Below are positions 1 through 44,005 of a stretch of 44,005 nt of DNA, piece after piece (the stretch's first letter is position 1; every line of letters begins with the position of its first letter). Where the stretch lies: IMG/VR virus record IMGVR_UViG_2579778573_000005. One strand, written 5' to 3'. The notes below the pieces were generated by a model. The model did not search any database. It saw only the letters and a list, made by a program, of their open reading frames with translations, and had not been told where the DNA came from. The translations under genes were made by a program, and so were the position numbers. This DNA is from a virus. Taxonomy: Duplodnaviria; Heunggongvirae; Uroviricota; Caudoviricetes.

Positions 1-271
1 TTACTCCAGAGACAGCCGAACCGAAAAACCGTTTTCAGCGAGCGTCAGACTCAGTGTGTTGATAGTCCAGTCCCGGTCCTCCTCGGTCCCGAAACCTTGA
101 GTTGTGACTTTGCATTCTGCTGTCAGCGACACTAAATCGAGCGTCGCTGGCGTCGTGTACGTCATAGAGAACTCTTTTTTAGCTGCACCGCCCTTGAGCC
201 CTGGTGCAGCTTCTTTCGCTGCGTCGAGCGACGGCTCAACTGCCGGCCATTCAATGACAGGATCGCCGCCA
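1..271 (-). pseudogene. Downstream segment of tail gene D in a second reading frame (open 4-324, stop at 1-3); probable frame-broken C-terminal part of D
   Basis: Minus-strand frame open for ~107 codons directly downstream of the D stop, overlapping the D 3' end; no start codon near the junction (first Met at 165). Confidence 0.35.
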
Positions 272-1045
272 CTACCTTGTCCGCAATTCTTTGATCTGCC
301 CAGTTGCTGTGTCGTGATATTTAATCAGATACGTCGGTTCCGGATTTTCGCCACCGCTACCACTATCGCCACTTTGTCCATTTCTCGAATAGCCCCAGCT
401 GGAGTTATCACGACGAGTTAGCGTGTAGTGCTGGAGCGGAGCACCGCTAACAGATTCGCCCGCGCCGCGCGGCAGGAATATCCAGTACCCGCCCGCGGGT
501 TTACTCACCGCATCGAATCTCGTTGCGAGCCGCGACATCAGGTGCATATCTGACTCGCCGACCTGATCGAGTTGCGTGATAACATTGTCTGCAAACCGCT
601 TTGATACGCGTGGTTTTAGCCCATTATCGCTCGCTATTGTCGCAACGATATCGCTGACAGTGACGTCGCTCCAGGAACGAGTCTTTTTGCTCTGAACTGT
701 CGGAGATCCTTTTGCTGCGTTCATCGGAGCCGCTTTTGCTGTGAAATCAACTACCCGGGGTTCACCGCCACTGCTAGCACCGTCAACGATGTATATCCCT
801 TTATCAATTATCTGATTACCGAAACCGAGCCCAATACTGATTTTTACTCCGCGGGCCGGAATTTTCAGAGTTTCAGAAACTATTGCTACGCGGAGTTCGT
901 CTGTCTGTTTACTGGAGCCGCCGTAATCTGTCAGCGTGATATTGATCAAACCTTTTCTTATTTTATCCGTGATGTTTTTATTATCAGCAGATATATAAAA
1001 ATTAGGTTTCCACGCCTCCACGCCAGTATTTACGTAATCACTCAT
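272..1045 (-). CDS. Phage tail protein D (P2 gpD-like), N-terminal ~257 codons
   Basis: Track ORF 257 aa; last gene of a P2-ordered tail operon; shorter than typical gpD (~350-390 aa). Confidence 0.55.
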   Translation of the reverse strand: MSDYVNTGVEAWKPNFYISADNKNITDKIRKGLINITLTDYGGSSKQTDELRVAIVSETLKIPARGVKISIGLGFGNQIIDKGIYIVDGASSGGEPRVVDFTAKAAPMNAAKGSPTVQSKKTRSWSDVTVSDIVATIASDNGLKPRVSKRFADNVITQLDQVGESDMHLMSRLATRFDAVSKPAGGYWIFLPRGAGESVSGAPLQHYTLTRRDNSSWGYSRNGQSGDSGSGGENPEPTYLIKYHDTATGQIKELRTR

Positions 1046-1048
1046 TCA

Positions 1049-1273
1049 TCAATCCCATAATTGCGTTTCTTTTTTAACCGGCTCTGGTTCGATATCTGGT
1101 AAAACAATTTTTTCTCCAGCACGAAACACGGCACACATATCCGTTACGCCGTAATTCGAAACCTGATATAAAACAGTCTCTGTCGTTTTTGACGCTCTCC
1201 CGTAGACCGCAAGGCAGATCTGATCGAGACGGTCACCGTCCCGTGTAGTGTATGTAATCATTTGGGGCCCCAT
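1049..1273 (-). CDS. Phage tail protein X-like small protein
   Basis: Track ORF 74 aa; resembles P2 gpX-type small tail proteins; sits between U and D. Confidence 0.5.
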   Translation of the reverse strand: MGPQMITYTTRDGDRLDQICLAVYGRASKTTETVLYQVSNYGVTDMCAVFRAGEKIVLPDIEPEPVKKETQLWD

Positions 1274-1434
1274 TAATTAAAAGGATTTCATAATGAGAAT
1301 TAATTTTAGTAGTCGGAGAGGTATTAGTATTTCGGCGTCAAAAAAAATACCATCAGGTTGTTTTACATTTATGTTCGTAGTTTTTTTTATTATTTTTATA
1401 CTTGTTAAGTGCTCTGGTAGCGCTTGATTTTGTA

Positions 1435-1863
1435 TTAATCTAGCGAAGCTCCATAATATTCGAGCGTGAGTGAAAAGTCCTGCGATTTAGGTGTTCCGCC
1501 CATCAAAAAGCTGTTTTGCGTTTCAGTTAGTTCTCGCAGCACCCAGTACCCTTTCACCTCCCCGGTCCCCAGCACTAGCTGCTGGGGTTCTCCCGTGTTC
1601 CCGAGCGCTCGCAAATCTGTCAACAGGCCGACGCCGCACCCGTCAAGAAATAAAGCGTTTATCTTTCCATCGATAGTAATTGTGGGGTTCGGTCGTCCGG
1701 TTATCTGCAACGCGTCGTTTTTCCCGAATCGTGTTTGCTGAGCCCAGCGCCAGGCGTCACTACGTTGCAGTTTGTTGTACGCTACTGTTGATATAGCAAA
1801 AATGAAATCACCCAGGCCGAGCATGATATCCTCAGCACCGTTTATTGCATCACTCATTGTCAC
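1435..1863 (-). CDS. Phage tail protein U-like
   Basis: Track ORF 142 aa immediately downstream of the tape measure gene, overlapping its stop. Confidence 0.5.
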   Translation of the reverse strand: MTMSDAINGAEDIMLGLGDFIFAISTVAYNKLQRSDAWRWAQQTRFGKNDALQITGRPNPTITIDGKINALFLDGCGVGLLTDLRALGNTGEPQQLVLGTGEVKGYWVLRELTETQNSFLMGGTPKSQDFSLTLEYYGASLD

Positions 1864-4432: not shown

Positions 4433-5935
4433 TTAGACTGTTTCTTTAAAAAGAGAGGCCAGAGCTTCAACTGTGTAATCATTATTAATGCGGTACATTA
4501 ACGTAATTGTTTGTGCCGGGGATTTCGGTCCAAAGTCAACATTAATATAAAGATTACCAGCGGCCAGACTTTCTTTTGTATTTAACTCTTCATCTAACCA
4601 CGCCCGTCCTCCGTTAATCGCGCCCTGCTCCTCTAATTTATGCAGATACGCGTTTATCGACTCTACAACGTCTGTTCCGAGGTGCAGGTCTATCGGGCGA
4701 TCAATAAAATCGGTCATCATTGCCCGGGCTATTGAATCCTCAATTACGTCAGCTGTCCGACGAACGCATTCAAAGGACCATTGGGGACTGAGGCTACACA
4801 GATAGTTACCCCAGTGTCTGAATCCATCATAGCGAATAATTGTGCTGACCTGGCTGGCGTTCAGCAGATTTGCTGTGCAGTTCGTTTCACCGATTATAAA
4901 ATCATCGACTTGTTCGAGTCCTGTAATTCCGTAGATATTTTGATTCGATTTGCTCCACCAAAACCCTTTTTCGTTATCAATTCTGGCTCGTAAACCAGCA
5001 GCGATAGCTGAATACGGACGAGATAAACCACTAACATCACTCGTAGAATAAACACGAGGGCGCAGAATTTCCATTCTGCCGCCGTACCTCTGACGACGAT
5101 TTACAACGTCAGCAGGCGTAGCGCCTCGCGGTGAATCGATATATCCAACGCCTCGTAATTTATTTGTCACCACTTCAAGTTGTTCTGCAATATAATCGTT
5201 AGCACTATAATCTGGAGCGATTAAAATTCTCGGCGTTACTTGATTTATTTGCGCAGACGTCAACAATGCGTTAATCCCGTTAACGACGTTCTGCCGCATT
5301 TTTGTTTCGTCGCTGTCCTCTTCGACGCGGACAACAACAATAATGGCATCCTCCTGATTTAGTATTTCAGATACAGCGGGAGGAAGGGTTCCAGACCCAC
5401 CGAGCAATCCAGCTTTTTTTTGACTGCCTGCAATTAACGTCGGAACATTATATTTGAACGATTCGTCTTTACCACCGGATAAATTTGTTGGGGGGAGCGC
5501 GAATACAGTCCCCGTTCCTGCGTGATCACCACCGAATGTGACGTTAATATATTCTCCAATCTGGAGTCCTTCTTTATACTGCTGGTTCTGATCGTACATT
5601 TTTGACGGGGTCATGGCACCGTCCGTGATCATTGTTAATTTTCTCGAACCGTCGGGCAGTGTGCTGTATCCTGGAGTTGCTACATTCCCGTTAATTCCCA
5701 AATCAACAATTTCAACAATCCAGTTGTTTCCGTCGGCCCCTGGCATGACAGTCGAAAACTCAACAAGATTGTCTGCGAGCTCTGATCCCCATAATAGTGA
5801 TGCACAAGTTGGGTAGCTGGAATCGGGAGCAGTACCAACAATCCCAATCACGGAAATATCTACTGTGTTGATCTCTTTTGTGCCGTCGTCGTATTCGAGC
5901 GTGCGAATACCGTGTAAAAAATTAGTTACGCTCAT
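4433..5935 (-). CDS. Contractile tail sheath protein (P2 FI-like)
   Basis: Track ORF 500 aa; N-terminal region resembles P2 FI sheath. Confidence 0.8.
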   Translation of the reverse strand: MSVTNFLHGIRTLEYDDGTKEINTVDISVIGIVGTAPDSSYPTCASLLWGSELADNLVEFSTVMPGADGNNWIVEIVDLGINGNVATPGYSTLPDGSRKLTMITDGAMTPSKMYDQNQQYKEGLQIGEYINVTFGGDHAGTGTVFALPPTNLSGGKDESFKYNVPTLIAGSQKKAGLLGGSGTLPPAVSEILNQEDAIIVVVRVEEDSDETKMRQNVVNGINALLTSAQINQVTPRILIAPDYSANDYIAEQLEVVTNKLRGVGYIDSPRGATPADVVNRRQRYGGRMEILRPRVYSTSDVSGLSRPYSAIAAGLRARIDNEKGFWWSKSNQNIYGITGLEQVDDFIIGETNCTANLLNASQVSTIIRYDGFRHWGNYLCSLSPQWSFECVRRTADVIEDSIARAMMTDFIDRPIDLHLGTDVVESINAYLHKLEEQGAINGGRAWLDEELNTKESLAAGNLYINVDFGPKSPAQTITLMYRINNDYTVEALASLFKETV

Positions 5936-21425: not shown

Positions 21426-22089
21426 AAACGTCGTCTAAATGGTTCTGATAATGATGCAAAGTTGCAAGAAGTGCCACTTCATCAAGTGCTCTCACCGCCT
21501 CTTTCATTCCTACCCAGTGCAGGGAGTATGTTTCGCACCAGGTGGAACGAGAAACCGACAGCATTCCTGCTAGGGTAGATCCGGCCATCTCCTTAAAATC
21601 CTCGCGTTTATTTGCTGCTGCGACCGCCTGCACGGACAACCACACCAACGAAAGCAGGCGCTTAACTACTTTTCTCTGAGTTGACGCGGGGATGTTTCCT
21701 TTATAGCGACTCCAGACAGCCTCACAAATAGCTGTTTGGTGTTTGAATGCCAGGTTACCACCGTAGCAATAACGCAACCACGCTTGCTGACTTGCATCCA
21801 GCGAGTTCACAGAACGCCGCCAGGATGAATCAGCAAATTCAAAATCACTCATCGGCGGCGCGGGGCGACGTCTGCTGAAACTTTCCAGAGCGTAAACTGG
21901 CGTAACCAGAGCATCAACGGTCCGGTCCTCCAGCTGCACACGGTGAATATGTTTGCGTGGGTATGCGTTTTTGTCTGCCGGTGGGTGCTCACACAATGCT
22001 TCCAGTTGCCCCTTAGAACCACCAGACAAATCCCGCAATGCAGCGCGCAGTTTTATGCGGGTATATTCCAATAAATACTCGTTACTCAT
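21418..22089 (-). CDS. Putative late antiterminator Q-like protein
   Basis: Track ORF 223 aa; between a ybcO-like gene and the lysis cassette. Confidence 0.45.
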   Translation of the reverse strand: MSNEYLLEYTRIKLRAALRDLSGGSKGQLEALCEHPPADKNAYPRKHIHRVQLEDRTVDALVTPVYALESFSRRRPAPPMSDFEFADSSWRRSVNSLDASQQAWLRYCYGGNLAFKHQTAICEAVWSRYKGNIPASTQRKVVKRLLSLVWLSVQAVAAANKREDFKEMAGSTLAGMLSVSRSTWCETYSLHWVGMKEAVRALDEVALLATLHHYQNHLDDVCV

Positions 22090-27165: not shown

Positions 27166-28305
27166 CTAAAAGTCCTTTGATTCTTGCTTGGTTAACAAAA
27201 TGACATAATTTTATTTAATGCCATAACAACTTAACAATATATCATAATATGATTATTATGGTGTAGCTTGTCGCATCTACGCTCCATTACAAACAGATGT
27301 AAGATATAACCTATATGTTTTAGCCAGCAAATTCGAAAGCATTCAAAGTAGTCTCATCGAACTCTCGAAACCCTATGTCTTCGGGTATAAAATATTTAAA
27401 TCCATTTGCATAATATCGACTCATGTTTATTATATTCTCCCCATTCACCATTAAGATTTGACATTATTTTCAACAATCGGTTATTGCAAGATTGAAATAT
27501 ATTTTTACTTGACACAATATTCCATGTAGCCCAGCGATTCGACTTACCCCCAACTATACGGACAATCTAAATTAAATCGATGATTTTTTGATACATTCTC
27601 CTCTCTCCATTACTTTATGTTTTTGTTCCCCAAAAATACCTTGCTCTCTAAAAAATAATTGTTCTTTAAGTTCAAAATCGAGATCTACATGAGCGTTAGA
27701 TACAAAGCTAATATGTTGAAATGTCTTTCCCCCCCCCATAACGGCATTGTTATCTAAACTATGTTACACAAATATAATATTACCCTTTCAACGTAATCCA
27801 AGAATAAGATTAATGCCATTATATATATCATAAATATGATATTTTGTATATTTTTATCATTTAGCCTTGATTGTACTAGGTGTACTCTCAACGAAGTAGG
27901 GAAAGTCTGTTCCTCGCTCACAGCTGCCCTTCAGTAAGCGAAAAAATGCCTACTCGGTGCCATATACAGCCATTGTTATTAACAGCAGGGAATAATTCAA
28001 AACTGAAATTAAATATCTACCTTTTACAGTAGAAATAGTTCCTCCAGGACACTATCCATTGCCGGGCACAATCACTCGGGGTATAACGATATAAAATATG
28101 TTCATGATAGTGCAGGTTCGTATATTAAGTTCAGCAGCGAAAACATGCCTTACAGGTTTCCGGTTTTGGGAGCGTCGTTACAGGATCCTGCGCATACCGT
28201 TCCCATCTGTTGAATTAAAGGTTTCACAGCCTTTGCCGATATCACCTTTTACCTTACCTGTGATGCGTTCAGTGCTGAAGTGGTCAACAAAAACTGGCCA
28301 CCGAG

Positions 28306-29453
<1,148 letters not shown>

Positions 29454-29606
29454 TATGGCACCTGTGTTGTTCTGAGGTGAGCATATCACCTCTGTTCAGG
29501 TGGCCAAATTCAGTAAACCACTTCATGCTCAGCGTTGTTTACTGTAGCTCTCGGGACTGATTACAGACCGCGTCTTAAAAACCAATCCTTACTCTAAAGG
29601 GAATTC

Positions 29607-38450: not shown

Positions 38451-40667
38451 ATGACCATTTTTAACGGCTTGTTAGAAGCGAAAAAAGGCGCGCTCAAAAA
38501 CGGCGCGATCCCGGCGCTGGCCATCGCCATCGCCGCCCCTAACAAAAAAGTTGCCGAGAACATCATCATCGGCAAATTGTGGGAAGCCTACCCTGACCAC
38601 GGCGACAACTATTTCAAACCTAAAATCTGGGAAGATGCCCCGGGCCAACCGCGCCCAGGCGTCGGTGAGTTTGATGAGACGTTTGCCACAGAACACAGTT
38701 TTGATGGCGAAAAATGGGTAGTTAACACTCCTGTTGATTCAGATTGCAGTTCAGCAGATATCTCACAGGTTAGCGACCTGATGAAACTGCCGGCTCGTGA
38801 ACGATTCGCCGCCGTTCTGCTGTTCAGCCACGACGCCAACGAAGTCGACAGTGAATTGCTTGTGCAGACGCGTGAATACCTGGAGATGCTCGATAACAGT
38901 GATACTGACAGTGAGGATGAGGTTGACGCGTTTAACCGCATCGTTCTTGATGCCATGGTGGCGTGTAAGCCCATCGAGTACATGCATATTGCTGGATTGA
39001 ATAATCTGGTACATGCAATTTTGGCAAGTTGCGATACCCAGGAACAAAACCCGACCAGTTGGACTATCTCCAAATTTATAAAAAAATGGGTAGAGAATCC
39101 CGGTAAACGAGATGAAATGCTGCCGGAGGTAAAACCAGAAACAGCATCCGCACGTCCTTACAAACAGACTCACGCCACTCTGGATCGTGAAATTGCCTGC
39201 GCCCTGTTACCTGTTGCCCCGGAAAAAATCACCCCCAGCATCCTGAAAGCGGCAGACGAAATAATCAGTCAGGACAGGGAAGATTTTAAACGCTGGTCAA
39301 TGGCCTTGCGCACAACGGATCAGATCCTTGCCTATGACCGCGCATCAGTATTCGGTGTTATTCAGAGCGCCCCCGCAAAAGACACGTACCACTTCCCACA
39401 ATCCCTGCGCAGTCACATCGACAACTGGCTGCAAGCTAACGGGCAGCGTGATGCAAATGCTGTTGAAGAGAAGCCAAAGGAAGCAGCACCCAAGGATGAT
39501 GTAAAAGTCACCAACCACGGCGGCGGACGATTCTCAATTGATGGGATGATGTCAGAAACACCCTCAAATCAGGGCGAAAAAAGCGAAGCTGCAAATGCTG
39601 GAGAACGTAGTTTGCAGCAGTTGCGTGAGCAGTTTGTCACGCCTCGCCATGTGTATGACGTACCTGAAAATAACGCCGTATCACAGAGGGAACCTGCAGC
39701 TATTACCCTGGCAGAAGAGACTCCTCCACAAGAACAACTTAGCGAGCAGGTAAAGGATCTGGTGCAGAACGTTGACGCGCTGGTTGAGCGGATCCATGCC
39801 GAAGAGCACAAGCGGCAGAATGCAATCTCAGCTATCGAAACGGAGTTAAAGGACTCAGATGACACGGATAACCTGGCATTGTGGAAGAACGTATTCAAAA
39901 CCGATGAGCGCTTCACCAGTGCTTTCTCTCAGAATGGCGGCGGCACATCCATCAACGGCACTTATATAGCGATGAAAGCGACTCGCGAATTTGGGCCATT
40001 TGGTATTGGCTGGGGGGTAGAGGTGCTGGAGGAGCGCTTTGATAAAGGCGCACCAATAGTTCGCAAAAAACAGGTTGGTGAAAAAATAGAATGGGATCTG
40101 ATTCAAGACGGTGTTGGCGGGTACCTATGTGAAATGCACCACACCATGAAAGTGAGAGTCTGGTACATATTGAATGGGGTACGCGGTGAGTCCGAGGCTT
40201 ACGGATGCACACCTTATATCTACGACACTAAATACGGACCAACAAGCGACGGCGAAGCACCGAAGAAATCCTGGACGGATGCTGTTAAGAAAGCGCTATC
40301 CCCTCTCGGATTCAGCGCCGATATTTTCATGGGCCTGTACGACAATCCGGAATACCGCCAGAGGAATAAAGCTGAGTTTGATATCAAGAATGCCAGCGAG
40401 AATGCGGAAGATGCTACCCGTCTGCGTAAGGAACTGGATGAGAAGCTTATCAACGTTGCCAATACGCTGGCCGCCGCGGTAACCGCCAACGAAGTAAACA
40501 AGGTATTTGGCCTCATCGCCCGCGAAGTGGATGTACACAGGAAAGCAGCGGAAACCAAAGGCGATAAAGAATATTCATCGTATCTGGGATCACGTCTGCG
40601 CCGTATCACCGACATTAAAACTGAACGCCTCGCCGCCCTTACCGCTGCACAGGAGCAAACAGCATGA
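38451..40667 (+). CDS. Large early protein of unknown function
   Basis: Track ORF 738 aa; GAGGAAAGACCA RBS module; acidic N-terminal half; no family recognised by eye. Confidence 0.5.
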   Translation: MTIFNGLLEAKKGALKNGAIPALAIAIAAPNKKVAENIIIGKLWEAYPDHGDNYFKPKIWEDAPGQPRPGVGEFDETFATEHSFDGEKWVVNTPVDSDCSSADISQVSDLMKLPARERFAAVLLFSHDANEVDSELLVQTREYLEMLDNSDTDSEDEVDAFNRIVLDAMVACKPIEYMHIAGLNNLVHAILASCDTQEQNPTSWTISKFIKKWVENPGKRDEMLPEVKPETASARPYKQTHATLDREIACALLPVAPEKITPSILKAADEIISQDREDFKRWSMALRTTDQILAYDRASVFGVIQSAPAKDTYHFPQSLRSHIDNWLQANGQRDANAVEEKPKEAAPKDDVKVTNHGGGRFSIDGMMSETPSNQGEKSEAANAGERSLQQLREQFVTPRHVYDVPENNAVSQREPAAITLAEETPPQEQLSEQVKDLVQNVDALVERIHAEEHKRQNAISAIETELKDSDDTDNLALWKNVFKTDERFTSAFSQNGGGTSINGTYIAMKATREFGPFGIGWGVEVLEERFDKGAPIVRKKQVGEKIEWDLIQDGVGGYLCEMHHTMKVRVWYILNGVRGESEAYGCTPYIYDTKYGPTSDGEAPKKSWTDAVKKALSPLGFSADIFMGLYDNPEYRQRNKAEFDIKNASENAEDATRLRKELDEKLINVANTLAAAVTANEVNKVFGLIAREVDVHRKAAETKGDKEYSSYLGSRLRRITDIKTERLAALTAAQEQTA

Positions 40668-41464: not shown

Positions 41465-41689
41465 ATGCTGCGATGGCAACCGGGAGCAACTCTGCTCTCC
41501 GCATTTGATATCAAAATTGGTCGACTGTCGGCCAGCGTCAGGAAACAGACTTTGACCGAGTCTGATATTGCCCGTGCCTGCCAGAAGGCAGATGACGCAA
41601 TAAGCTACATAATGAGGAAAGACCATGAAAAGCGATCACGACATAATCACCAGAGAAGAAATGGTCGAGCTGACGGGAAGCCCACTTAA
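41465..41689 (+). CDS. Hypothetical small protein
   Basis: Track ORF 41435-41689; ATG 41465 with GGAGGA RBS; 3' end overlaps next gene. Confidence 0.3.
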   Translation: MLRWQPGATLLSAFDIKIGRLSASVRKQTLTESDIARACQKADDAISYIMRKDHEKRSRHNHQRRNGRADGKPT

Positions 41690-41888
41690 ATCAAAGCAAT
41701 GTGAGGCTCTTCGCCGGGCTGGAATTTTCTTCATGGAAAGGGCTGACGGACACCCAAAAACAACCTGGGGCCATTTCATGAACCCAATAAAATTTCGCAA
41801 TTTACAGGAGGTGACGACGCGAAAAGATGATGAACCTGATTTTGGAGCAATATTTAATGGCCGGAAAGAGAAAGAACCCAGCAGATAA
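41625..41888 (+). CDS. DUF4224-like protein upstream of integrase (possible excisionase/directionality factor)
   Basis: Track ORF 87 aa; IITREEMVELTG...RRAGIFF pattern; GAGGAAAGACC RBS module. Confidence 0.5.
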   Translation: MKSDHDIITREEMVELTGSPLKSKQCEALRRAGIFFMERADGHPKTTWGHFMNPIKFRNLQEVTTRKDDEPDFGAIFNGRKEKEPSR

Positions 41889-42873
41889 CTGGATGCCGCC
41901 TCGTGTTTACCAGGGCAAAGCGGCCTACGAATTCAGGAATAAAGATAACAAAGCGATACGCCTGTGCGCATTGGATGCACCACGATCAGCCGTATGGCTG
42001 GCATATGAAAAAGCGGTCGGTGACGAAAAAGAAAGAAATACTTTTCAGGCGCTCACGGAACAATTCATGACCTCCCCTGATTTTATGGATTTGGCAGTCG
42101 AAACCCGGAAAGACTACACAAAATATTCCGGAAAAGTTCTGCCTGTCTTCGGGAAGATCGACCCGGATAAAATCAAACCTGAACATATTCGGCGCTATAT
42201 GGATCAACGCGGTTTATCAAGCCGAACTCAGGCAAACAGGGAAAAAAGCTTTATGTCCCGGGTATTCCGTTGGGGTTATGAACGAGGTTATGTTCAGAGG
42301 AATCCTTGTCAGGGAGTTAAACAGTTTAAAGAGAAAGCTCGCGAACGTTATATTACGGATGAAGAATATCAGGCCGTTTATGAAGTGTCTCCTGATGTTG
42401 TTCGCGTAGCAATGGAGATTGCCTACTTATGCGTGGCCAGACAGAGTGATGTACTTTCATTGCAGAAAGACCAGCTGTTCGATTCCGGGATCTACATTCG
42501 TCAGGGAAAAACCGGCGTTAAGCAAATCAAAGCCTGGTCGCCTCGTCTGCAGAAAGCGATAGCTCTGGCTCGTTCTCTGCCATTAAAAACGGGAATCAGT
42601 AGCCTGTTTGTGATTCATCAAACTACCGGTGGCAAGTATACCCGTGATGGTTTTAACTCTCGTTGGCGTGATGTCAAAGCGGCAGCACAGGAAAAATATC
42701 CTCATCTGCAAATAGACTTCACATTTCATGATCTGAAAGCAAAAGGTATCTCTGATCTGGAAGGCAGCCTGGAAGAGAAGCAAGCAATTTCCGGGCATAA
42801 GAACCCGCGACAGACAGCAGCATATGACCGGAAAGTTAAAGTAGTGCCCGTAGTTGGTGGCCAGAGAAAATGA
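41857..42873 (+). CDS. int: Tyrosine integrase
   Basis: Track ORF 41827-42873; likely start ATG 41857; ends 130 bp from the tRNA-Leu 3' end. Confidence 0.8.
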   Translation: MAGKRKNPADNWMPPRVYQGKAAYEFRNKDNKAIRLCALDAPRSAVWLAYEKAVGDEKERNTFQALTEQFMTSPDFMDLAVETRKDYTKYSGKVLPVFGKIDPDKIKPEHIRRYMDQRGLSSRTQANREKSFMSRVFRWGYERGYVQRNPCQGVKQFKEKARERYITDEEYQAVYEVSPDVVRVAMEIAYLCVARQSDVLSLQKDQLFDSGIYIRQGKTGVKQIKAWSPRLQKAIALARSLPLKTGISSLFVIHQTTGGKYTRDGFNSRWRDVKAAAQEKYPHLQIDFTFHDLKAKGISDLEGSLEEKQAISGHKNPRQTAAYDRKVKVVPVVGGQRK

Positions 42874-42878
42874 ATGAT

Positions 42879-42913
42879 GATGCGTCCAGAGAAAAATCAT
42901 CTTCGGACGCATC
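42879..42913. promoter_or_regulatory. 9-bp inverted repeat in the int-tRNA spacer (att-region element or int terminator)
   Basis: GATGCGTCC ... GGACGCATC with 17-nt loop. Confidence 0.3.
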
Positions 42914-42933
42914 TTCGGAAATGAGAAAGAAGA

Positions 42934-42960
42934 TACAAAAAAACCACCCGAAGGTGGTTT
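42934..42960 (-). terminator. Rho-independent terminator downstream of tRNA-Leu
   Basis: Minus strand AAACCACC-TTCG-GGTGGTTT followed by TTTTT. Confidence 0.65.
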
Positions 42961-43003
42961 CACGACACTGCTTATTGCTTTGATTTTATTCTTATCTTTC
43001 CCA

Positions 43004-43090
43004 TGGTACCCGGAGCGGGACTTGAACCCGCACAGCGCGAACGCCGAGGGATTTTAAATCCCTTGTGTCTACCGATTCCACCATCCGGGC
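43004..43090 (-). tRNA. leuZ: tRNA-Leu (anticodon UAA)
   Basis: 87-nt reverse complement reads GCCCGGATGGTGGAATCGGTAGACACAAGGGATTTAAAATCCC...CCA with long variable arm. Confidence 0.9.
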
Positions 43091-43102
43091 TCGGGAAAAA
43101 AG

Positions 43103-43176
43103 TGGAGGCGCGTTCCGGAGTCGAACCGGACTAGACGGATTTGCAATCCGCTACATAACCGCTTTGTTAACGCGCC
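43103..43176 (-). tRNA. cysT: tRNA-Cys (anticodon GCA)
   Basis: 74-nt reverse complement reads GGCGCGTTAACAAAGCGG...GATTGCAAATC...TCCA. Confidence 0.9.
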
Positions 43177-43229
43177 AAATTCTTCAGGCCTTTCAGCCAG
43201 ACATCCGCTGACGCCGATGCCTTTTAAAC

Positions 43230-43305
<76 letters not shown>

Positions 43306-43378
43306 ATTCATCAAGCAATCAGTTAATCACTTGATTTTATTATCGTCTGGCAATCAGTGCCGCCGTTCGATGCGTTGC

Positions 43379-43406
43379 ATTCTACTTACCTGGCGCGATG
43401 AGTCAA
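43379..43406 (-). promoter_or_regulatory. Promoter of the tRNA-Gly/Cys/Leu operon
   Basis: Minus strand TTGACT-16-TAGAAT ~75 bp upstream of tRNA-Gly. Confidence 0.55.
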
Positions 43407-43456
43407 CGATATTTTTCACCACTTTTGATCGTTTGCTGAAAATTGCGCCGAAACGA

Positions 43457-44005
43457 TCACTGATCAAGCAAATCTGCACGCGCAGCGCTCAAATATTGCA
43501 ACATTGACCACAGAGTCAGTACCGCAGCCACAAAGAAAAGTGCAATACCGGCGTACTCAACCCAAATATTCGGACGCCACAGCAGCCATGCCAACGCCAC
43601 CATCTGGGCAGTGGTTTTCACTTTTCCAATCCAGGAGACAGCCACGCTACTGCGTTTACCCAACTCCGCCATCCATTCGCGTAGCGCAGAAATAATAATT
43701 TCACGGGCGATCATCGTTGCTGCCGGTAAGGTCACCCACCAGCTGTGGTAATGCTCGGTTACCAGCACCATGGCGATAGCCACGAGAACTTTATCTGCGA
43801 CAGGGTCAAGGAAAGCACCAAACCGGGTACTCTGATTCCAGCGGCGTGCCAGAAAACCATCGAACCAGTCAGTCACCGCCGCGACGCAGAAAATGAGCGC
43901 GGCGGCAAACGGCGACCAGGTGACAGGCAAATAAAAGACCAATACAAAGAATGGGATAAGGATGACACGGAACAGTGTAAGCAACGTAGGGATATTAAAT
44001 TGCAT
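43457..44005 (-). CDS. pgsA: CDP-diacylglycerol--glycerol-3-phosphate 3-phosphatidyltransferase (host)
   Basis: Track ORF 182 aa, complete; CDP-alcohol phosphotransferase motif D..DG.LAR.....[11 protein letters not shown]. Confidence 0.9.

Follow-up and report, generated by a model that had tools for sequence, protein, structure and literature searches.

The right end of the window, the whole stretch of 44,005 nucleotides of DNA analyzed here, sets a phage integrase gene directly against a bacterial tRNA-Leu gene. This arrangement raises the question of where the phage DNA ends, where it was joined to the chromosome, and which of the two partners provides the 3′ end of the tRNA and the terminator behind it. 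Comparison with empty sites and related phages makes it very probable that positions 42874-43090 are the attR of a ~44-kb temperate phage integrated in leuZ by its own tyrosine integrase, an exchange in the anticodon loop being the likeliest route.

The int-leuZ junction and its second copy

The window derives from an Escherichia coli prophage that is frequent in ST131-type genomes and lies beside pgsA-glyW-cysT-leuZ. ARAGORN identified three tRNA genes on the minus strand, all of them confirmed by Rfam, with pgsA to their right. The gene nearest to the phage is leuZ (43004-43090), an intact tRNA-Leu (UAA; anticodon taa) that is also recovered by Rfam (43007-43090) and by its cloverleaf fold. 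It is followed by tRNA-Cys (43103-43176) and tRNA-Gly (43230-43305). leuZ is the last gene of the glyW-cysT-leuZ operon and its 3′ end is at 43004. An Rfam scan of 42500-43500 at E ≤ 1 returned nothing besides the three tRNAs that reaches threshold; weak matches to STnc130 and sroD on the terminator and trailer fall far under their gathering scores.

The preliminary description of this region reported convergent integrase and tRNA genes separated by 130 bp, with a 9-bp inverted repeat and a rho-independent terminator for the tRNA operon in the spacer. The gap between the int stop at 42873 (plus strand) and the leuZ 3′ end at 43004 (minus strand) is exactly 130 bp, and both elements are present. 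The inverted repeat pairs 42879-42887 with 42905-42913. The intrinsic terminator of the operon occupies 42933-42961 on the minus strand according to the terminator scan and the fold, and the scan places its hairpin at 42961-42940, with nine pairs and a 4-nt loop followed by TTTGTATCTT.

Prophage-free genomes were used to locate the junction. The pgsA-glyW-cysT-leuZ locus was matched in all 5426 complete E. coli genomes, and the window integrase gene sits beside leuZ in 433-434 of them. In the prophage-free genomes sampled, the match to the window begins at 42933-42935. K-12 C600 is perfectly identical to the window from 42935 rightward and unrelated to the left of this position, where its sequence leads to yecA. 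The alignment with a prophage-free locus, which had been proposed as a check, thus upholds a junction at the tRNA.

A search of the window with the yecA-side flank of K-12 gave no match, and the window holds a single copy of the block at the junction, 42935-43059. To read the second copy, which falls beyond the window, we turned to genomes that match the window exactly at its ends. This copy is found at 4967-5091 of the SK1144 locus and at 1570-1694 of the H105 locus, on the yecA side, and both copies are identical to 42935-43059 at 125 of 125 positions. The H105 sequence is 100% identical to window positions 1-1500 and has its yecA-side copy 807-931 bp leftward of window position 1; SK1144, whose prophage likewise ends outside the window, has its copy beside yecA at the same distance. 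The preliminary description had predicted that the other att site lies beyond position 1 and had named a direct repeat at the far prophage boundary as a second check; the 125-bp repeat beside yecA bears out both. Joining the yecA flank of attL to one block and to the right flank of attR rebuilds the K-12 empty site. The boundaries of this ST131-type prophage are fixed in this way, with the attR copy of the 125-bp identity block common to attP and attB at 42935-43059, as defined by the repeat and by the start of K-12 homology, and attL 807-931 bp left of the window. The length of the prophage is ~43.9 kb, including an ISEc52 element.

The block consists of the terminator (42940-42961), a 69-bp trailer and the 3′ 56 nt of leuZ. 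Read on the tRNA strand, it runs from tRNA position 32 to position 87 and on through the trailer to the terminator hairpin and its T run. Its right edge at 43059 corresponds to tRNA position 32, one 5′ anticodon-stem base beyond the 7-nt loop, and its left edge coincides with the terminator's end. In attL the block breaks off at the anticodon loop and gives way to phage DNA. leuZ is full-length after integration, and a displaced 3′ fragment remains at the far end of the prophage. The terminator had been described as a phage-side element. It is carried by the phage, but it is not specific to it: the same terminator stands in the K-12 empty site, and two copies exist after integration because it is part of the shared block.

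No virion genome of the window phage was present in the phage collection searched. The collection does contain 100% matches (vB_EcoM-569R10 and similar entries) that start ~800 bp before the block and run into the far arm with the int side unmatched. These matches were considered as a free-phage attP and set aside, since with the int side missing they resemble the integrated attL arrangement.

Position of the strand exchange

Both block copies of the window phage and the K-12 site are identical at 125 of 125 positions. The crossover cannot be read from sequences that do not differ, and relatives were used instead. A search of sequenced phages with the reconstructed attP recovered mEp390, Fostie and Pectobacterium phage ZF40. 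All three have the order excisionase, integrase, short tandem repeats, terminator hairpin, trailer and 3′ part of a tRNA-Leu, and in all three the similarity to leuZ ends at one common point, ...GGGATTTTAAAT. The block edge lies at this same anticodon-loop boundary in the window phage and in 4-5 sequenced or integrated relatives. In the GenBank record of mEp390 the stretch is annotated as a putative attP.

The relatives' blocks have diverged from the E. coli sequence in a particular way. The T stem in their attP carries a compensated change from C61-G75 to U61-A75, and the terminator hairpin is kept in mEp390, Fostie and ZF40 with altered loops or compensated stems; in ZF40 both strands of the stem have changed together. 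Such changes are those expected of phage DNA that enters a working tRNA gene and operon terminator, and the compensated T-stem pair together with the kept hairpins exemplifies selection on the tRNA sequence that these phages carry. Hybrid leuZ genes with U61-A75 in place of C61-G75 were also observed in E. coli chromosomes, in two mEp390-like lysogens (L011, L012) and in strains XD35 and 1008S19, as a compensated change brought by the element.

The diverged alleles allow the crossover to be mapped in lysogens of mEp390-like relatives. Two E. coli strains were used: MB20, which has a 5.7-kb remnant, and 2017C-4173W12, which has a full ~43-kb lambdoid prophage. Their integrases are 63% identical to that of the window and have the same orientation beside leuZ; they are 99% identical to each other, and the two integration events may not be independent. 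In both strains the copy on the int/tRNA side has all of the phage-type alleles, namely those of the terminator loop, a 2-bp deletion, the spacer changes and the compensatory T-stem pair at 43016 and 43030, out to window-equivalent 43030. The copy on the yecA side has K-12-type alleles throughout. This split places the crossover between window-equivalent positions 43031 and 43060 and shows directly that the terminator, the trailer and the tRNA's 3′ part all come from the element. The supply of these parts by the prophage, which the preliminary description had suggested, is thus backed by the 125-bp repeat, the attP of the relatives and the alleles in lysogens of a related phage; integration in leuZ itself is backed by the repeat, the empty site and the relatives' attP. 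The description had put the crossover in or near the tRNA 3′ end. Integration in leuZ holds, but the exchange is most likely not at the 3′ end: the interval mapped in the relatives begins ~27 nt and ends ~56 nt inside the gene from that end.

[quoted passage not shown] The anticodon stem-loop (43047-43063, with the loop at 43052-43058 and the anticodon at 43054-43056) was detected as an inverted repeat, coincides with the block edge and is the only symmetric element in 43031-43060. The likeliest site of exchange is the 7-nt anticodon loop, ~50 nt inside leuZ. This loop is favored because the block of every family member ends there and because the interval offers no other symmetric element; the assignment draws on homologues with 63% identity and on where the block ends.

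The other places at which the strands could have been exchanged were weighed against these data. T-loop and 3′-end subsites are common among other integrase subfamilies (PMC4383910), the T stem-loop is within the identity block, and the window phage's own identical copies allow any point in 125 bp. A crossover at or just past the 3′ end of the tRNA (in the T-loop, the acceptor/CCA junction or the trailer), with the repeat on the anticodon side as extra homology, is nevertheless very unlikely. Position 43030, in the 5′ strand of the T stem, carries the phage allele on the tRNA side and the host allele on the yecA side in the related lysogens, and the exchange must therefore have taken place 5′ of the T arm in the tRNA. 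The anticodon-loop block edge common to the window phage and its relatives is likewise what is expected of a functional edge. Integration downstream of leuZ, in the terminator or between genes, with the hairpin as the symmetric core and the tRNA uninvolved, is barely credible. The homology to empty sites does break at 42935, directly beside the terminator hairpin, and this hairpin is a perfect 8-bp inverted repeat. However, the repeat runs 98 bp past the hairpin into the tRNA, and in the relatives the terminator-loop and spacer alleles are phage-type on the tRNA side, which puts the exchange to the right of them.

An exchange in the anticodon loop leads to the following proposed mechanism. The attP would have its 125-bp host-identical block, with the terminator, trailer and leuZ 3′ 56 nt, directly downstream of int. 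The strands would most probably be exchanged within the 7-nt anticodon loop, at the end of this block that is farther from int. The host leuZ would keep its 5′ part and receive a 3′ part, trailer and terminator from the phage, and both the tRNA gene and the termination of its operon would thereby be preserved. The host's original 3′ part and terminator would be moved ~44 kb away, to lie beside yecA as attL. Repeats of CATCTTCGGA in the spacer would act as probable arm-type sites and the product of a DUF4224 gene as the probable excisionase. We infer from these comparisons that the integrase of the window phage is active in recombination at leuZ and that phage DNA makes up leuZ from 43004 to 43059 as far as the crossover. 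Carrier strains would then owe the 3′ part of leuZ and the glyW-cysT-leuZ terminator to the phage.

The integrase, the probable excisionase and the spacer

The tyrosine integrase is encoded on the plus strand at 41857-42873 and has 338 residues counted from the RefSeq start. The longest open reading frame begins at 41827, and 41857 is likely to be the true start according to RefSeq annotation of an identical prophage and the N termini of the relatives. The protein matches PF00589 (catalytic domain), PF22022 (central domain) and the PHROG integrase family phrog_1 (E = 2e-51), and its catalytic and central domains align to structures of lambda Int. The mEp390, Fostie and ZF40 integrases show 63-64% identity to it. 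Upstream, the plus-strand gene at 41625-41888 encodes a DUF4224 protein (PF13986, E = 1.1e-14) that matches phrog_1266, "excisionase" (E = 5e-35). In mEp390, Fostie and ZF40 the counterpart upstream of int bears the annotation excisionase, and the DUF4224 product is probably the excisionase of the window phage as well.

The alignment to lambda Int shows one departure in the active site. The motif FHDLK (codons 42724-42738; residues 300-304 from the 41827 start) aligns with FHELR of lambda, so that a lysine replaces the catalytic Arg311, the second arginine of the R-K-H-R-H/W-Y signature. The other signature residues are seemingly present. The lysine is found in six of six family members (the window phage, mEp390, Fostie, ZF40, MB20 and 2017C-4173W12). 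The second catalytic arginine is near-universal in tyrosine recombinases. No Pfam family for an arm-binding domain matches the N-terminal residues 1-82 of the integrase; MPPRVYQGKAAYEFR in the protein resembles the N terminus of lambda Int, by eye alone.

The spacer between int and the identity block contains two overlapping features. An imperfect hairpin at 42876-42916, found by the repeat search and by folding, is built around the 9-bp inverted repeat, in which GATGCGTCC (42879-42887) pairs with GGACGCATC (42905-42913) within 17-nt arms at 42876-42892 and 42900-42916. The second feature consists of two 10-bp direct repeats in tandem, CATCTTCGGA, on the plus strand at 42898-42907 and 42910-42919, which are perfect and spaced 12 bp from start to start. 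The right arm of the hairpin coincides with the junction of the two direct repeats.

The stability of the hairpin invites the view that it is the key element of the spacer, as a stabilizer or processing site at the 3′ end of the int mRNA or as a back-stop terminator, and that the direct repeats are incidental. Its predicted folding energy is -21.4 kcal/mol (z = -4.3), and none of 200 shuffled sequences folds as stably, which takes the structure beyond chance. It is equally non-random on the minus strand (z = -4.5), where it precedes a moderately U-rich stretch. Despite this strength, such a role for the hairpin is unlikely. There is no comparable hairpin at the equivalent place in mEp390, Fostie, ZF40 or MB20 (z = +0.5 to +1.1), and it was not taken as the key element because of this lack of conservation in four relatives. 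The terminator scan did not call it, and its right arm is formed by the junction of the direct repeats. The hairpin may still act as a second stop for transcription running on from the tRNA operon, or form a structure at the 3′ end of the int mRNA. A sib-like retroregulator was also considered for it and rejected: its place on the int side of the crossover keeps it joined to int whether the phage is integrated or excised.

The direct repeats are the feature that recurs. Tandem repeats of 8-12 bp occupy the same place in all relatives examined, with a sequence that differs from phage to phage, and each relative's own motif is found again in the other attP arm. There it is inverted at +42 from the block edge in four of the four relatives and direct at ~+105 in mEp390, ZF40 and 2017C-4173W12, though not in Fostie; these copies have at most one mismatch. 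The other-arm copies of the window phage, at positions 1737 and 1799 of the H105 locus (+43 and +105), have two mismatches each. Repeated motifs in both arms of attP are the typical look of arm-type integrase binding sites. The CATCTTCGGA repeats are probably the arm-type binding sites of the int-proximal arm of attP, judging from this pattern. They lie ~140-155 bp from the presumed crossover, farther than the int-proximal sites of lambda attP lie from theirs.

Taken together, these features permit a broader proposal that is possible, if doubtful: the integrase family would recombine at leuZ with a lysine for the second arginine and with fast-evolving arm-type sites unusually far (~140-155 bp) from the crossover. 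The long spacing would arise because the 3′ part of the tRNA, the trailer and the terminator that the phage carries lie in between. If true, the family would be a natural variant of both tyrosine-recombinase chemistry and attP architecture.

Relation to other elements and further features of the prophage

An element that integrates in a tRNA gene restores its target and displaces a fragment of it, and among the recognized crossover subsites is the anticodon loop (PMC4383910; bioRxiv 10.1101/2020.11.02.365908). The passages of the Islander paper (PMC4383910) that relay the classification of Williams 2002 describe an anticodon-loop class in which the block starts at the anticodon loop and takes in the rest of the gene to its 3′ end, the target is regenerated beside int and the displaced 3′ fragment is at the far end, as in the window prophage. 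The window block extends 69 bp further than in that class, past the gene to the terminator; it is 125 bp long, and its kind is not unusual. The window site is a textbook anticodon-loop tRNA att site with a lambda-like int-xis module, and this kind of site is already known. A search of the literature on leuZ and ST131 found no published description of the site of the window prophage. The significance of the result beyond annotation is small; mildly unusual are the lysine for Arg311 and a 125-bp block long enough to hold the whole terminator.

The closest described example is mEp390 (NC_019721), whose attP (21481-21601) is already annotated. It has the same excisionase-integrase-attP order as the window, and its integrase is 64% identical to that of the window, FHDLK motif included. 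The mEp390 attP contains a leuZ-like terminator, the trailer and the tRNA-Leu 3′ part up to the same ...TTTTAAAT boundary, with tandem repeats between int and the block. It differs from the window phage in that its block deviates from E. coli leuZ at several positions, the compensated T-stem pair and the terminator loop among them, whereas the window block is host-identical at 125 of 125 positions, and in that its arm repeats are AATGGCGAA, unlike those of the window. Outside this module mEp390 is a lambdoid phage whose tail is of the siphovirus type, whereas the tail genes of the window prophage are of the P2-like contractile kind. Lambda itself, with a heterobivalent integrase and arm-type sites, is a more distant parallel. 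The catalytic and central domains of the integrases align, the excisionase gene, a probable one in the window phage, lies upstream, and short motifs recur in both arms at fixed positions; unlike lambda, the window phage targets a tRNA gene and not an intergenic site, has a lysine for Arg311 and gives no Pfam match to an arm-binding domain.

Integration at leuZ is frequent, and integrases of at least three unrelated types use the site. Additional copies of the block were counted at ~1,700 among 5,425 complete E. coli genomes, and an integrative element at leuZ has been reported in O145:H28 (PMC7067040). P4-like, P2-like and mEp390-like elements share one anticodon-loop boundary at the five hot-spot loci compared. 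The other elements at E. coli leuZ include islands with P4-like integrases (XD35, 1008S19) and a P2-like prophage (FSIS11705876, O157-type), which share their attB and the block edge at the anticodon loop with the window prophage; their integrases are unrelated or only remotely similar to that of the window. In the 1008S19 island the block beside the tRNA is of the element type and the one beside yecA is native. XD35 has the element-type block beside leuZ, and a second copy was not found in the stretch examined. The P2-like prophage of FSIS11705876, unlike that of the window, has its int at the yecA end.

Two lesions mark this copy of the prophage. Relative to the near-identical SK1144 prophage, positions 28277-29521 are a ~1.25-kb insertion, annotated in matching genomes as the IS3-like element ISEc52; a query spanning it was covered to at least 80% in only five of 5426 genomes. 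The last tail gene (2-1045, minus strand) has a 1-bp insertion relative to SK1144 at ~278, which reduces its product from 347 to 257 residues. This gene is annotated as a VgrG/Pvc8-family protein in SK1144 and as late control D in TUM2367, and the window-identical genomes listed mostly annotate a short "hypothetical protein" in its place (774 bp in H105). Given ISEc52 and the frameshifted tail gene, the window copy may be defective and may have lost the ability to form virions.

The prophage is a mosaic. Positions 1-21000 encode a P2-like contractile tail, with a tail tube, tail protein X and late control D-type proteins, and positions 21000-42900 form a lambdoid early region with a Q antiterminator, a replicative helicase, an ImmA/IrrE peptidase and a YdaT-family toxin. 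The early region also contains a 738-residue open reading frame (38451-40667, plus strand) that encodes a hypothetical protein and lies upstream of a siphovirus Gp157-family gene.
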